Part shown: positions 17,067 through 21,022 of the stretch, piece by piece
Position numbering within the stretch: the first letter of the stretch is position 1
Layout: every line of letters starts with the position of its first letter
Sequence record: OR670491
DNA length: 64,000 nt
Origin: Escherichia phage vB_EcoM_JNE01
Direction: 5' to 3' (one strand)
Program-made: the position numbers and the translations under genes
The notes under the pieces: generated by a model
Database searches by the model: none
Told to the model about the DNA's origin: nothing
Seen by the model: the letters and a program-made list of their open reading frames with translations, nothing else

Positions 17067-17312
17067 ATGAACAATTCAACAGATCACTACCAAGAACTTA
17101 GTCAAAGTACTAAGAACTATATGAGCTACATGAACGCAGAAGATTTCGCAGTCTTCCTCGGAAAATTCTGTGCAATCAATACCCTCAAAAAAAGTACCAG
17201 TACTACAAGTGTACTTATGTTGAATTGCTTTATAGAGAACATCCTTGAGGAACTTCAAAGCCCTGACGAAAGTAAACGATTCATGAACCTTTTGTTACTG
17301 GCCTCTATATGA
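17067..17312 (+). CDS. hypothetical small protein (first gene of YY array)
   Basis: 81-aa ORF with SD. Confidence 0.5.
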   Translation: MNNSTDHYQELSQSTKNYMSYMNAEDFAVFLGKFCAINTLKKSTSTTSVLMLNCFIENILEELQSPDESKRFMNLLLLASI

Positions 17313-17518
17313 CTCAAGAACAAATTATGCAGTACTACCTATGTGCTATATCAAAAGAACATCTGAATAGCATAGGGCATCAACAAATTATACTTGCAAA
17401 TGCGAAACGTTCGGCACTTCTGCTTAACTCCATCAGAAATAACCTCATAAGGAATTTTCTGGAAGGTAACGAATCTATGCAGTACTATTTCATCTTAACA
17501 CTACTAATCGAGTACTAA
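17309..17518 (+). CDS. YY-family small protein
   Basis: N-term QYY, C-term QYYFILTLLIEY; ATGA overlap. Confidence 0.55.
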   Translation: MTQEQIMQYYLCAISKEHLNSIGHQQIILANAKRSALLLNSIRNNLIRNFLEGNESMQYYFILTLLIEY

Positions 17519-17722
17519 ATGAATAAAGAACAATTATTTCAGTACTATAAAAGTACTCTGTCCAAAGGTCTACAGGAAAGTATAGCAGTTGAGTCTGCAA
17601 TACTACAGAACCTTAATGCAGTAGAATTCACAAACAGAATCACCAGGCACGCACAAAATGCTTTACAAGGACATGAAACCTTGAGATACTATCACATCAT
17701 CGTGCTTTGTATGGAGGTATAA
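17519..17722 (+). CDS. YY-family small protein
   Basis: TAA-ATG abutting; FQYY ... RYYHIIVLCMEV. Confidence 0.55.
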   Translation: MNKEQLFQYYKSTLSKGLQESIAVESAILQNLNAVEFTNRITRHAQNALQGHETLRYYHIIVLCMEV

Positions 17723-17730
17723 CAGAACAA

Positions 17731-17922
17731 ATGAATCCAGAACATCTAGAGTACTACAAGACATTCATGAACCACAAGGATCAGTACAGTTACAATACTG
17801 CTATGGGGCATTTTCGATACCATACCAAAAAAATGCAAAAGCACACACTAACACTATGGACTGTACAAGCACAACGAGACGAACTAAGATTGTGTGCTAT
17901 AATTAAAATCCTGAACATCTAA
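17731..17922 (+). CDS. YY-family small protein
   Basis: start moved to MNPEHLEYY. Confidence 0.5.
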   Translation: MNPEHLEYYKTFMNHKDQYSYNTAMGHFRYHTKKMQKHTLTLWTVQAQRDELRLCAIIKILNI

Positions 17923-17930
17923 GGAATACT

Positions 17931-18122
17931 ATGTACGAGCACAAAGAACAGTACTTAAACACTCTACCTAAAGATATACAAAGAGCATTCCCTTGTGCTC
18001 CGTGGGATTTAAACAGTAAATGGGGTTTTATTGAGTTCTATAACGATGTATGTATTGTACTGGAAAGTAAGTCCCTCTCAATGCAGTACTGTTCAATCTT
18101 GAACCTAATTTTTAAGTACTAA
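17931..18122 (+). CDS. YY-family small protein
   Basis: MYEHKEQY ... QYCSILNLIFKY. Confidence 0.55.
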   Translation: MYEHKEQYLNTLPKDIQRAFPCAPWDLNSKWGFIEFYNDVCIVLESKSLSMQYCSILNLIFKY

Positions 18123-18125
18123 AAC

Positions 18126-18305
18126 TATGCAAACATTCTATACAGATAGACTAAGCCTTAGAGATACTTTTATGTACGAAACCTTTGTTAAGTACTATAA
18201 CTTAGGTACTCCAATTACAAAGAATATTAATCTACAGCACTGCACACACTCAGCAGTACATGACCACGATCCGTACAGATACATCTTAGCCCTTTTAAGT
18301 ATATA
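18126..18305 (+). CDS. YY-family small protein (59 aa, absent from ORF track)
   Basis: hand-translated; ends YRYILALLSI; starts 3 nt after previous stop. Confidence 0.45.
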
Positions 18306-18315
18306 AGGAACACTA

Positions 18316-18990
18316 ATGAAACTCAATAATTACAGTAAACAATACCTAAAGCATTTTAAGTACCTCAAAAGCATTAAGGCTGAATCTATCACCAGCAGCT
18401 ACGTTTACAGCCCTAATGTACTAAAACAATTAAAGTACAAGAAAGAAAAAGTATCAAAGAACCTCAAAAAGTTTCTTAAGCACAAAGACGCAAAGATTCA
18501 GTACTTGAACATTAAAAACGATCATCCAGTACTAAGCCTCAATACAAGTCTAAAGAATCTGGATAACTCTTCATTTATGCTTGAGTTCAATATAAATGAA
18601 AATACTCCAGCGGTTTTTACAATTGCGTATAATAAAGCACAAATCTTTTTAGGTGCAAAAACCGCACTTAAACTCAGTAAAGCACAATTCTGTTTAGGTG
18701 ACCAGTACTACGTAGGTAGTGTACATATTGAACTCGAAAAAGATATGTACTTCGGTAGTACCCACGATAATCCAGAACATAAAGATACTATTGACTTCTT
18801 CAGGAATCTCCCTAAAGAGTATTCAGAAGATGAAATGTTCCAGTGGAGTACTATTATTAAAGACCCACATCTTTGCTACGAAGTGTATAAGAAAGTACAA
18901 GGGATTAAACAAATGATTAAAGAAAATAAAAAAATGTACCAACTCTTGCAGTTCTTAACCGGAGAAAATCTAATTGTTCAAAGACCATAA
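18316..18990 (+). CDS. hypothetical protein with FQ-S motif (EDEMFQWSTIIKD)
   Basis: 224-aa ORF inserted in the YY array. Confidence 0.55.
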   Translation: MKLNNYSKQYLKHFKYLKSIKAESITSSYVYSPNVLKQLKYKKEKVSKNLKKFLKHKDAKIQYLNIKNDHPVLSLNTSLKNLDNSSFMLEFNINENTPAVFTIAYNKAQIFLGAKTALKLSKAQFCLGDQYYVGSVHIELEKDMYFGSTHDNPEHKDTIDFFRNLPKEYSEDEMFQWSTIIKDPHLCYEVYKKVQGIKQMIKENKKMYQLLQFLTGENLIVQRP

Positions 18991-19168
18991 AGAGTACTAC
19001 AGAAATCAACTCCCAAAGGAATGGCAAATAACATTAGAAACTAACCTAGCACAGATATATACCCAGAAGTTTCTTGCTATGACATGGGAGCACTGCATTG
19101 AGTCAGTACTGAATTCTTCAAATGAATCACAATATCTCAATACTCTTTTACTTGTATATAAATTCTAA
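18974..19168 (+). CDS. YY-family small protein (TTG start)
   Basis: TTG directly after in-frame TAA, SD GGAGAA 8 nt upstream; HKEYY ... QYLNTLLLVYKF. Confidence 0.45.
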   Translation: MFKDHKEYYRNQLPKEWQITLETNLAQIYTQKFLAMTWEHCIESVLNSSNESQYLNTLLLVYKF

Positions 19169-19181
19169 AAAGGAATAACAA

Positions 19182-19388
19182 ATGCAATTCCATGAACATA
19201 TGGAGTACTACAGAAAACAACTACCAGAACCTTTATCGATGATAATCGGTTCCAGAAGTTTAATAAGTAATCCCAATTTTCATATGCGTAGTCACTATAA
19301 ATGTACTGCTTCAATTTGTAATGGAACTGCTCACAATGAACCGCACCAGCATCTATACCAAATCCTTAAACTAATATATCAGTACTAA
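19182..19388 (+). CDS. YY-family small protein
   Basis: HMEYY ... LYQILKLIYQY. Confidence 0.55.
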   Translation: MQFHEHMEYYRKQLPEPLSMIIGSRSLISNPNFHMRSHYKCTASICNGTAHNEPHQHLYQILKLIYQY

Positions 19389-19391
19389 ATT

Positions 19392-19583: not shown

Positions 19584-19586
19584 ATC

Positions 19587-19766
19587 ATGCACAACGATTT
19601 CTATATACAAAAACTTATCGACGCTGGCCTGGAAAGCTTCCCGATAAATCCTGTACAAACAAAAGGATTGCACTGGTACTTCATCCCCTGTACTAAAGCA
19701 TGTATAAACCCCAGCAATTACAAGGATCTATACCACAATATATTAATACTCGCATTGAGGTACTAA
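19587..19766 (+). CDS. YY-family small protein (59 aa, absent from ORF track)
   Basis: hand-translated MHNDFYIQK...LYHNILILALRY. Confidence 0.45.
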   Translation: MHNDFYIQKLIDAGLESFPINPVQTKGLHWYFIPCTKACINPSNYKDLYHNILILALRY

Positions 19767-19769
19767 ATT

Positions 19770-19952
19770 ATGCAAGAACACTTGGAGTACTACAGAAGCC
19801 ATCTCCCAAAGAAGGCACAAAGAAACTTCGACCAACAATATATAAACCAAAAGAATCAGTTCTATAATGCATTCTATTCGTCTATGAAAACTATTGCTAT
19901 ACAAGGCAAAGACCCGTACTATAGCATCCTGAACATCATCTTCAAGTACTAA
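19770..19952 (+). CDS. YY-family small protein
   Basis: MQEHLEYY ... YYSILNIIFKY. Confidence 0.55.
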   Translation: MQEHLEYYRSHLPKKAQRNFDQQYINQKNQFYNAFYSSMKTIAIQGKDPYYSILNIIFKY

Positions 19953-19955
19953 AGC

Positions 19956-20141
19956 ATGTACAGAGACTTCTATATAAGTAAACTTAATCCTGTACTACAA
20001 ACTCGTATTCCTCCAGCGAAATTTATCCTCAAAACAAAAGCACAAAGGTATGAGTTCAAAAAGTGTACAAAAGAAATACTCAGTACTAAAAGTAATAAGA
20101 ACATATACTATCAAGTACTCGTCCTTATATTCAAGTACTAA
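19956..20141 (+). CDS. YY-family small protein
   Basis: MYRDFY ... YYQVLVLIFKY. Confidence 0.55.
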   Translation: MYRDFYISKLNPVLQTRIPPAKFILKTKAQRYEFKKCTKEILSTKSNKNIYYQVLVLIFKY

Positions 20142-20161
20142 AGTACTAAAGGAATAAACAT

Positions 20162-20356
20162 ATGCAACACCAGCACAAATTGTACTACACGCAATTTCTT
20201 AATCAGCAACTACAACAATTTATACCTAATGAACCATTACCATATGATCATCCCCTGGGTGCACGCGTTTTCAAAAGAACTATTAATGAACTATTGAGTA
20301 CTACCGACGACGATTCCCTGTACTACTGCTTAATTAAACTTATATATAGGCACTAA
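20162..20356 (+). CDS. YY-family small protein
   Basis: KLYY ... YYCLIKLIYRH; SD AAGGA. Confidence 0.55.
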   Translation: MQHQHKLYYTQFLNQQLQQFIPNEPLPYDHPLGARVFKRTINELLSTTDDDSLYYCLIKLIYRH

Positions 20357-20357
20357 T

Positions 20358-20552
20358 ATGCAACTCCTGCACAGAGAATACTACACACAATTCCTTAAAG
20401 AGAACTACAGAGATTCAGTCCCCGTAACTCCTTTTGACCCAAATAACCCAAGTTCAATCTTCCTCTTTAACGACGCAACACGTACTGCACTCTGTACTAC
20501 CAATAAACATTGGCACTACGCATTTGTACTTATACTTATATACAGACACTAA
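20358..20552 (+). CDS. YY-family small protein
   Basis: REYY ... HYAFVLILIYRH. Confidence 0.55.
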   Translation: MQLLHREYYTQFLKENYRDSVPVTPFDPNNPSSIFLFNDATRTALCTTNKHWHYAFVLILIYRH

Positions 20553-20561
20553 GGCACTAAC

Positions 20562-20747
20562 ATGAATGAGCACAGAGAGTACTACATAAAGAGACTTCAC
20601 CCCGACCTACGAGATACTATACCATTCGTTCCACATAATATACATGAACCCGTAGTGCAGTACTACTTTAATATAACAGTACAAGCCGCATTAAGTGAAT
20701 ATAGACTTGAGTACTTCACTGTACTAAAACTTATATATAAGTACTAA
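20562..20747 (+). CDS. YY-family small protein
   Basis: HREYY ... YFTVLKLIYKY. Confidence 0.55.
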   Translation: MNEHREYYIKRLHPDLRDTIPFVPHNIHEPVVQYYFNITVQAALSEYRLEYFTVLKLIYKY

Positions 20748-20812
20748 CCCCTTGACATATACTCCAAGAATGATATACTACTTTCTATATAGAAACAATA
20801 CAGAGATAACAT

Positions 20813-21022
20813 ATGCACGAACATAAAGATTTCTATGTAAGCCAACTCCCCGTAATAGACCAATTCTGGTTAGCTGATGCAGCACCGTGTAATACAGATA
20901 CTAAGTACGGACAATTGTGCTTTGTTGAATCTATAAAGAAAGTACTACAACAAGATAAAACTAAGTACCGTAAAGAAAAAGACTTGTACTTTAATATAGT
21001 AGAACTTACCTTTATGTTCTAG
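20813..21022 (+). CDS. YY-family small protein
   Basis: HKDFY ... LYFNIVELTFMF. Confidence 0.5.
   Translation: MHEHKDFYVSQLPVIDQFWLADAAPCNTDTKYGQLCFVESIKKVLQQDKTKYRKEKDLYFNIVELTFMF

Follow-up and report, generated by a model that had tools for sequence, protein, structure and literature searches.

Positions 17067-21022 of Escherichia phage vB_EcoM_JNE01 carry a dense row of very short open reading frames, which raises the question of what these ORFs encode, how they are expressed and what maintains their tandem order. All analyses refer to a stretch of 64,000 nucleotides (the window). Altogether, the region probably represents an early operon of an Asteriusvirus-like jumbo phage. The multigene family it holds is lineage-restricted and encodes proteins of 59-69 aa.

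Organization of the array

The region comprises 17 consecutive ORFs, all on the plus strand, namely 11 clear phrog_11711 members, four divergent members, the first gene and an embedded gene of 224 aa (Table 1). An earlier note, made from the sequence alone, had described an array of about 16 tiny genes. This array is real, with about 15 fast-evolving family members within the 17 same-strand ORFs. Both members below 60 aa that had been proposed exist, with 59 aa each (18127-18306 and 19587-19766); the coordinates given for the former (18126-18305) were off by one, those of the latter exact.

Table 1. Features of the tandem array and associated elements in the window (SD, Shine-Dalgarno sequence).
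Feature	Position	Strand	Length (aa)	Remarks
Distant dispersed member	5459..5668	+	69	Leave-out HMM E=7.6e-7
Predicted promoter P1	17015..17043	+		TTGACA, 17-nt spacer, TACAAT; 11/12 consensus matches, pattern match only
First operon gene	17067..17312	+	81	Strong SD (dG -9.2); HMM E 0.28 to 5
Divergent member	17309..17518	+	69	Leave-out HMM E=0.0019; ATGA overlap with upstream stop; no SD
Divergent member	17519..17722	+	67	Leave-out HMM E=8.7e-6; gap 0 after AGTACTAA; no SD
Divergent, marginal member	17731..17922	+	63	Leave-out HMM E=0.026; GGAGGT SD, dG -10.6
Core member	17931..18122	+	63	phrog_11711 E=1.8e-7; AAGGAA SD; AGTACTAA ending
Divergent member	18127..18306	+	59	Leave-out HMM E=0.24, non-significant alone; 4-nt gap, no SD
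Embedded non-member	18316..18990	+	224	phrog_29152 E=3.2e-41
Core member	18974..19168	+	64	phrog_11711 E=2.1e-8; TTG start, GGAG SD upstream (dG -6.6); 17-nt overlap with the 224-aa gene
Core member	19182..19388	+	68	AAGGAA SD; AGTACTAA ending
Core member	19392..19583	+	63	3-nt gap, no SD; mosaic allele
Core member	19587..19766	+	59	phrog_11711 E=2.7e-10; 3-nt gap, weak AGGT SD only
Core member	19770..19952	+	60	3-nt gap; GAGGT within the upstream gene's coding end
Core member	19956..20141	+	61	phrog_11711 E=3.2e-13; 3-nt gap, no SD
Core member	20162..20356	+	64	AAGGAA SD; preceded by AGTACTAAAGTACTAAAGG
Core member	20358..20552	+	64	1-nt gap, no SD
Core member	20562..20747	+	61	Recombinant of two Turkey5 paralogs
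Predicted promoter P2	20752..20779	+		TTGACA, 16-nt spacer, TATACT, TG extension; 11/12 consensus matches
Last core member	20813..21022	+	69	phrog_11711 E=1.1e-9; own promoter
Intrinsic-terminator-like hairpin with T-run	21341..21369	+		Sole plus-strand candidate downstream of P1

Family membership and distribution

Based on PHROGs v4, the 11 core members match phrog_11711 over nearly the full profile (E 1e-13 to 1.6e-4), and none of the genes starting at 17309, 17519, 17731, 18127, 17067 and 5459 matches it at E<=0.01. The four upstream divergent members and the 5459 gene are tied to the core by leave-out HMMs or hhalign alone, and the four upstream members are only weakly linked to it; for 18127..18306, hhalign pairs the ortholog profile with the core profile over the full length (E=2.3e-4, probability 44%). 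HMM searches gave no significant family membership for the first gene, which is possibly a very divergent relative and is conserved in first position in other genomes such as 121Q (gene 249). The outlier that had been pointed out at 5459-5668 indeed groups with the family (E=7.6e-7 with an HMM from which it was left out); of 595 ORFs, the next one, unrelated, reaches E=0.21. It lies directly 3' of a 213-aa gene (4816-5457, phrog_34359), paralleling the 18974 member after the 224-aa gene, and the two larger proteins show marginal similarity (E=0.044). The 224-aa gene occupies the same place within every array examined and shows an omega of 0.14 in comparison with Escherichia phage Turkey5, the nearest relative.

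An exhaustive profile search of 1.84 billion proteins returned only 23 family representatives, all of 59-69 aa, and a word-indexed search yielded 11 matches only (two vB_EcoM_JNE01 proteins and nine sequences of public assemblies). Using tblastn against phage records, the family was found in 32 records, all from jumbo Escherichia or Salmonella phages. Judged from these searches, the phrog_11711-type family is restricted to Asteriusvirus-like jumbo phages. The same family is present at the same syntenic place in 121Q (gp250-265, phrog_11711; counterparts in PBECO4, SP27, slurp01, A4 and WPEC5), between minus-strand RCC1-like genes and a non-coding stretch of ~2 kb, and these arrays share the same embedded gene (220 aa). 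Protein identity between the window/Turkey5 lineage and the 121Q-type copies is only ~45-55%, with a pN of ~0.35. The paralogs of the array are of old origin and have diverged strongly, with 14-30% identity to the reference member. Pfam, NCBIfam, PDB and Rfam gave no significant sequence or fold match, sequence and fold searches revealed no functional homolog, and the literature searched offered no description of the family or its function. All members are annotated as hypothetical proteins, and annotators miss some of them in several records.

Transcription and translation of the array

A single promoter had been proposed for the array; instead, two strong sigma-70-like promoters were found (17015-17043 and 20752-20779). 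Transcription would begin at these two near-consensus sites and stop at one terminator-like hairpin, P1 driving the first 16 genes and P2 serving the last one. In total, the plus strand of the window contains 26 strict sigma-70-like promoters, mostly in the downstream small-gene block. No Asteriusvirus transcriptome or functional data were found in the literature searched. In CBB, a relative, the equivalent region is a proposed location of host-takeover genes (PMC5259590).

The earlier note regarded nearly every gene boundary as an identical AGTACTAA junction lacking a separate SD, and deduced termination-reinitiation coupling from this. This word is found at only 6/16 junctions (6/17 gene endings); other genes end in GGTACTAA (two) or G[GA]CACTAA (two). 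Similarly, only 8/16 junctions are both tight (-4 to +4 nt) and SD-less, and an AAGGA/GGAG-type SD (dG <=-5.6) precedes seven or eight of the starts. Across 80 distinct junctions from 10 genomes, two classes are apparent: tight, SD-less junctions (gap -8 to +4 nt, n=38, an SD with dG <=-4 in 2/38) and junctions with a gap of 8-12 nt (n=29), 59% of which have an SD, compared to 72% of the other genes in the window. These two classes fit translational coupling at about half of the junctions, and the proposed mechanism is plausible for this half and not for nearly all. About half of the genes carry their own AAGGA-type SD, and the tight SD-less members most likely receive ribosomes straight from termination at the preceding gene. 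As in coupled gene pairs of the ATGA or TAATG type, for example in the trp operon, stop and start are separated by -8 to +4 nt at these junctions, and no SD precedes the second gene; unlike in those pairs, only about half of the array junctions qualify, at which translation of the second gene may depend on that of the first. No conserved RNA structure that would enforce coupling was found at the junctions.

The word AGTACTAA is not a family-wide junction signal: over 119 unique members of the 10 genomes, it overlaps the stop codon in 21, and the commonest ending is AGG-TAC-TAA. Its recurrence can be attributed to the conserved C-terminal [KRQE]-Y-stop together with a genome-wide preference for AGTACT. 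The word is mostly a by-product of a C-terminal [KQE]-Tyr encoded as xAG-TAC ahead of TAA in a genome preferring AGTACT.

Protein features and selection

The shared terminal motifs described earlier hold over these 119 members: M-x-x-H-K-E-[YF]-Y at the N-terminus, with an invariant Tyr, and [YL]-Y-x-[IV]-L-x-L-I-[YF]-[RK]-Y at the C-terminus, enclosing highly variable middles. An AlphaFold2 model shows four helices (mean pLDDT 81.5), and each member is predicted to form a small four-helix domain with no known relative. Conservation in the family covers the hydrophobic core, the invariant Tyr near the N-terminus and the hydrophobic helix at the C-terminus, and the paralogs may present different surfaces on one scaffold.

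Among 158 distinct ortholog pairs, dN/dS is 0.36 in frame versus 1.16 and 1.12 in the shifted frames, and the comparison of members with Turkey5 gives an omega of 0.16. By this substitution pattern, the array ORFs are coding and every ortholog is under purifying selection; its frame specificity shows that the proteins matter. ORF lengths of 59-69 aa persist across the 10 genomes despite changing frames. The earlier note had suggested testing the members for diversifying selection; among orthologs, it is unsupported (omega 0.16-0.5), and such values are not what marks a protein caught in an arms race. Judging by their position, size and turnover alone, we infer that the proteins may serve as early, partly dispensable host-interaction factors (host takeover or counter-defence).

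An over-represented word and a possible DNA-level role

The palindromic hexamer AGTACT is 10-14-fold over-represented genome-wide and 14-fold in the window. Its enrichment goes beyond codon usage and extends to all three reading frames; it is present in most early promoters and ranks first among hexamers in three Rak2-like phage genera. The excess is shared by 121Q, RaK2 and GAP32, absent from T4 when tested there, and not mentioned in the literature searched. Within coding sequences, 190 copies were observed versus 59 +/- 6 upon synonymous-codon shuffling, and xAG-TAC-T is used 60 times versus 18 times for the three alternative codon pairs. Sites occur about once per 210 bp with the extended consensus CAGTACTG; their flanks are symmetric with a preference for C-AGTACT-G, G being the rarest base at -1 (35/301 sites).

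Such a pattern could mean that the array acts mainly at the DNA level, as a dense field of AGTACT/TACTA sites at which a factor of the phage or the host binds or modifies DNA, with the ORFs secondary, which we consider unlikely; equally doubtful is the corollary that the conserved Y-Y and Y-stop codons are owed to the DNA word. In addition to the frame-independent excess and the symmetric flanks, this reading draws on the density of AGTACT, which is highest in the array (8.3 per kb versus 4.5 in the rest of the window and 3.6 in coding sequence overall) and maintained in all arrays of the 10 genomes (AGTACT 5.8-8.3 per kb, TACTA 10-12.5 per kb). It also draws on a synonymous constraint: the [YF] codon ahead of the invariant Tyr has C at its third position in 112/119 members, compared to 39% for the other [YF]-Y pairs of the window, a position-specific constraint that falls outside the early-operon account. 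However, frame-specific purifying selection speaks for the proteins, the N-terminal motif is encoded as GAG-TAC-TAC in the window/Turkey5 lineage but mostly as GAA-TAC-TAC, without AGTACT, in the 121Q lineage, and AGTACT is found at the stop in only 21/119 unique members. Moreover, the conservation of individual AGTACT sites exceeds that of their flanks only marginally (mismatches 2.6% versus 3.9%, p=0.10).

The early protein-coding operon remains the preferred reading of the array. Tentatively, AGTACT (CAGTACTG) might be a positively selected word of the whole Rak2-like clade, at which a clade-specific factor binds or modifies the DNA. If so, it could have roles such as self-DNA marking, compaction or an early-promoter switch, the array would be its densest coding carrier, and the xAG-TAC-TAx codons and AGTACTAA junctions would be shaped jointly by protein- and DNA-level selection. 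E. coli SlmA binds sites of the form GTGAGTACTCAC, which have the same central core AGTACT. The phage sites, with their C-AGTACT-G flanks and the rarity of G at -1, misfit this consensus. The excess, flagged by the junction motif, is the larger lead; it would imply a DNA-level system, so far unrecognised, in a phage group of therapeutic relevance.

Copy number and recombination

The suggested comparison of array length among related phages revealed 14-19 members per genome. The 10 genomes are separated by unit-sized indels of ~190, 200, 390 and 580 nt, whose breakpoints fall in shared tracts of 9-56 nt located -50 to +37 nt from a member's ATG and reaching from the C-terminal motif across the junction into the N-terminal motif. 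These data support the proposal that unequal recombination resizes the array; that the octamer AGTACTAA alone provides the homology was not borne out. A base-by-base comparison identified 20562-20747 as a hybrid of adjacent Turkey5 paralogs, with the 5' end from copy A, the body from copy B and the crossover in a shared tract of 32-48 nt. The allele at 19392..19583 shows 18% nucleotide divergence from Turkey5 (pS 0.25, pN 0.18) between flanks diverging by 0-3%. The family expanded via tandem duplication, and its copy number still shifts (14-19 members) through unequal homologous recombination at the conserved ends of adjacent units; in addition, individual units are swapped for divergent alleles.

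The location of every unit-indel breakpoint at unit ends, the hybrid gene, the allele replacement limited to one unit and the variable middles between conserved termini would also be expected if the ends were kept as recombination substrates of a cassette system shuffling the middles, i.e., a programmed diversification. We regard this as improbable, slightly more so than a DNA-level role, as ordinary homologous recombination of tandem paralogs would give the same events, the conserved termini coincide with helices that are conserved in the predicted fold, purifying selection acts on the orthologs, and neither a dedicated recombinase nor a targeting signal was seen. Least credible by a wide margin is that the region is AT-rich, non-coding and repeat-like and its ORFs are noise of annotation, as hypothetical-protein annotations and members missed in several records might suggest: this is contradicted by the omega of 0.36 in frame versus ~1.1 out of frame, the ORF lengths maintained in 10 genomes, the confident fold prediction and Tandem Repeats Finder, which detected no head-to-tail nucleotide repeat or iteron field inside 17067-21022.

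Comparison with other gene arrays

Blocks of small early genes are known from large lytic phages, as in the host-takeover module of SPO1 and the early hyperplastic regions of T4. Similar to the early blocks of SPO1 and T4 and the early region predicted for CBB, the array contains many tiny lineage-specific genes with sigma-70-type promoters and without database homologs; atypically for such modules, it consists mostly of paralogs of one family in strict tandem. Poxvirus K3L amplification and the multigene families of ASFV likewise change copy number via recombination of tandem paralogs between close relatives, whereas the present paralogs are of old origin and have diverged strongly, in contrast to recent identical copies. 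The array serves as a clean sequence-level example of a jumbo phage keeping and reshuffling a private family of tiny early proteins, and it supplies 15 natural variants of one scaffold for host-takeover or counter-defence screens. As a side observation, the RCC1-like genes of the window also form a tandem paralog block (5697-16965).

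Array family and its distribution

The array is a tandem, probably in part translationally coupled and lineage-specific family of small, presumably early proteins, real but of an ordinary kind. Its 17 consecutive + strand ORFs occupy 17067-21022, and eleven of them match phrog_11711 (PHROG, unknown function) along the entire PHROG. When the 595 stop-to-stop ORFs in the window were all searched with an HMM built from these eleven core members alone, the search recovered the dispersed ORF 5459-5668 (E=7.6e-7), thereby confirming as a family member the outlier named in the earlier note, together with the members starting at 17519 (E=8.7e-6), 17309 (E=0.0019) and 17731 (E=0.026); the best unrelated ORF scored E=0.21. 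Member 18127 was tied to the core solely via profile-profile alignment of orthologs (end to end, E=2.3e-4, probability 44%). Membership was not significant for the first gene (17067-17312) or for the embedded 224-aa gene at 18316-18990 (phrog_29152), whose paralogy with the 213-aa gene at 4816-5457 is marginal at best (E=0.044). For 119 unique members, taken from 10 genomes, the consensus reads M-x-x-H-K-E-[YF]-Y-x-x-x-L-P ... [YL]-Y-x-[IV]-L-x-L-I-[YF]-[RK]-Y, with one invariant Tyr and a variable middle. The shared motifs first read from the sequence hold up, as does the existence of the two 59-aa members. Array members are already in public records as hypothetical proteins.

Based on 158 distinct equal-length ortholog pairs, dN/dS was 0.36 when read in the annotated frame and reached 1.16 and 1.12 when the frame was shifted; the array ORFs are genes. 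Omega was 0.16 against Turkey5, the nearest relative phage, and ranged from 0.26 to 0.72 between genome pairs. Selection on the orthologs is thus purifying, and the diversifying selection for which a check had been suggested was not borne out. An AlphaFold2 model of 63 residues, for which the 15 paralogs served as input alignment, reached a mean pLDDT of 81.5 and comprises predicted helices at residues 2-9, 14-17, 30-45 and 49-62.

At the nucleotide level, the whole of 17000-21100 aligns with Escherichia phage Turkey5 (351 kb) at 96% identity, while the match to phage A4 is limited to a 100-nt piece. Using one member protein, tblastn detected relatives in 32 records, all of them 320-385-kb Escherichia or Salmonella jumbo phages; those inspected more closely, e.g. 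121Q and PBECO4, belong to the genus Asteriusvirus. Given the Turkey5 match and these relatives, the window derives from an Asteriusvirus-like (Rak2-like) jumbo phage. No match for the family was found in Pfam, NCBIfam, PDB sequences or Rfam. When 1.84 billion cluster representatives were searched exhaustively with a profile, 23 proteins were returned, all of 59-69 aa; an indexed search returned 11 sequences (two Escherichia phage vB_EcoM_JNE01 proteins and nine from public assemblies). The family is confined to these phages. From its context and by analogy with phage CBB, for which an early region was predicted (PMC5259590), we infer that the proteins may play an early role in host interaction; a literature search for paralogs or transcriptomes of Asteriusvirus gave no relevant result.

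Promoters and gene junctions

The earlier note had described one promoter followed by genes of which nearly every boundary carries AGTACTAA without a Shine-Dalgarno sequence (SD). Both statements are overstated, because there are two near-consensus sigma-70 promoters and two junction classes. Eight array starts, at a distance of -4 to +4 nt from the upstream stop, lack an SD, although at 19770 a GAGGT is present within the upstream codons; AAGGA- or GGAG-type SDs occur at seven or eight starts, including the TTG start 18974. Among 80 distinct junctions from 10 genomes, an SD was found in 5% of those spaced by -8 to +4 nt (n=38) vs 59% of those spaced by 8-12 nt (n=29). The two classes fit coupled translation of about half the genes. 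Gene endings vary likewise: AGTACTAA accounts for 6/17, GGTACTAA for 2/17 and G[GA]CACTAA for 2/17.

Promoters, terminator, repeats and start codons in and beside the array
Feature	Coordinates	Strand	Detail
P1 promoter, near-consensus sigma-70	17015-17043	+	TTGACA-17-TACAAT
P2 promoter, near-consensus sigma-70, ahead of last gene	20752-20779	+	TTGACA-16-TATACT
Terminator-like hairpin, sole + strand one	21341-21369	+	
SD-less tight starts	17309, 17519, 18127, 19392, 19587, 19770, 19956, 20358	+	
Tandem repeat	22203-22237		ACGGCTAA x4.4
Tandem repeat	22884-23048		66-bp unit x2.5, bearing AGTACTGAATAAT iterons

Two AGUACU copies are able to pair around the start codon at 17519 and 19392. Such pairing is not general, however, with z-scores near 0 overall, and a search for conserved RNA hairpins at the junctions found none. 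In 19182-20141, five consecutive members share the same frame and are parted only by TAA plus one codon, so that stop readthrough would fuse neighbouring proteins.

As to the octamer being a conserved junction, an AGTACT overlapping the stop is indeed a family trait, since none of the 123 genes outside the array ends in AGTACT-stop. Even so, the word lies over the stop in only 21/119 members, and the commonest family-wide ending is AGG-TAC-TAA; with endings this variable, the conserved thing is the protein motif. The N-terminal motif is mostly spelled GAA-TAC-TAC in the 121Q lineage, and the window lineage spells the protein motif with its genome's favoured word. A position-specific synonymous constraint is seen at the [YF] codon that precedes the invariant Tyr (e.g. 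19410-19412): it is C-ending (TAC or TTC) in 112/119 members and TAT or TTT in 3, whereas in the rest of the window only 39% of [YF]-Tyr pairs are C-ending.

Synteny and copy-number change

The array occupies a syntenic position in 121Q (genes 249-265), A4, PBECO4, SP27, SD-15_S21, WPEC5, slurp01 and Ecwhy_1, always flanked by minus-strand RCC1-like genes on one side and a roughly 2-kb non-coding stretch on the other, and with a 220-aa gene inside it in every syntenic genome. Comparison of array length, as proposed earlier, revealed 14-19 members per genome and recurrent indels of about 190, 200, 390 and 580 nt among the genomes other than Turkey5, i.e. one to three units. Turkey5 has one member more than the window, where 20562-20747 is a hybrid whose junction and opening codons correspond to Turkey5 copy A and whose body corresponds to copy B; the switch point lies within a 32-48 nt tract common to both copies. 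These comparisons support changes of array size by unequal recombination, via the conserved unit ends and not via the octamer to which the earlier note had pointed. Breakpoints share 9-56 nt of sequence, in every case at positions -50 to +37 relative to the ATG of a member and hence in one of the two terminal motifs (C- or N-terminal) or in the junction.

Between the window and Turkey5, member 19392-19583 has diverged at 18% of bases, compared to 0-3% in the flanks. In situ positive selection was ruled out as pS (0.25) is raised as much as pN (0.18), and the rise in both identifies a replacement by a divergent allele.

A clade-wide excess of AGTACT

Of greatest interest is the clade-wide excess of AGTACT that lies behind the "conserved junction". 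This word is the most over-represented hexamer of the window, with 301 copies observed vs about 22 expected; GTAC occurs 700 times. Coding sequence contains 190 copies vs 59.4 +/- 6.2 after within-gene synonymous-codon shuffling, a threefold excess in each frame. Where [EKQ]-Tyr is followed by T, xAG-TAC is used 60 times vs 18 for the three alternative codon pairs, notwithstanding that GAA, AAA, CAA and TAT are the commoner codons. Intergenic density is 9.7 per kb, and 21/26 strict sigma-70-like promoters on the + strand of the window carry the word, where it is fused with the -35 element (AGTACTTGCA) or abuts the -10 element (AGTACTGTATAAT). The bases preferred on its two sides mirror each other (C-AGTACT-G), which suggests that double-stranded DNA is recognised.

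AGTACT is also the top hexamer, at a 9-10-fold excess, in Klebsiella phage RaK2 (100-150 kb, 114 vs 10.8 expected), in an unrelated part of 121Q (200-250 kb, 133 vs 13.7) and in Cronobacter phage GAP32 (100-130 kb, 64 vs 7.2). T4 shows no excess (3 vs 5.5). No mention of the clade-wide excess was found in literature on AGTACT with phage, jumbo or RaK2.

An origin by VSP-like biased repair was rejected, the single-mismatch neighbours AATACT and AGTATT not being depleted (ratio 1.3). The sites have no spacing periodicity, their distances looking roughly exponential, and stronger conservation of single sites than of their flanks against close relatives was a non-significant trend (p=0.10). In contrast to AGTACT, the palindromes GGTACC, CGTACG and AGCGCT are absent from the window (0 observed; 8.3, 5.3 and 4.4 expected, respectively). 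Two islands are free of AGTACT: 43000-45000, where phrog_4148 proteins of about 80 aa are encoded in tandem (43279-45159), and 48000-52000, with phrog_19795, phrog_33775 and phrog_31297 proteins. As a clue they were uninformative, holding other families of unknown function.

Neighbouring regions

The non-coding stretch at 21023-23105 contains tandem repeats, and since the records of phages A4 and fEgEco12 begin beside this region, a physical genome end or terminal-repeat boundary may be close by. A block of about 45 small genes occupies 22000-43000, most with their own sigma-70-like promoter and often with a G-rich 5'-UTR hairpin (e.g. GGGGAGAAATGATTCTCCCC) between promoter and SD. On the minus strand, 5697-16965 encodes about ten tandem RCC1-like repeat paralogs of 357-447 aa with the N-terminus MLPF[AV]RM in common, annotated in 121Q as putative DNA condensation proteins; the one at 13395-14574 appears frameshift-split. 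At 1652-4419 (+ strand), eight tightly packed or overlapping genes form a tandem array of paralogs that encode small membrane proteins of 102-125 aa whose C-terminal tails are basic.
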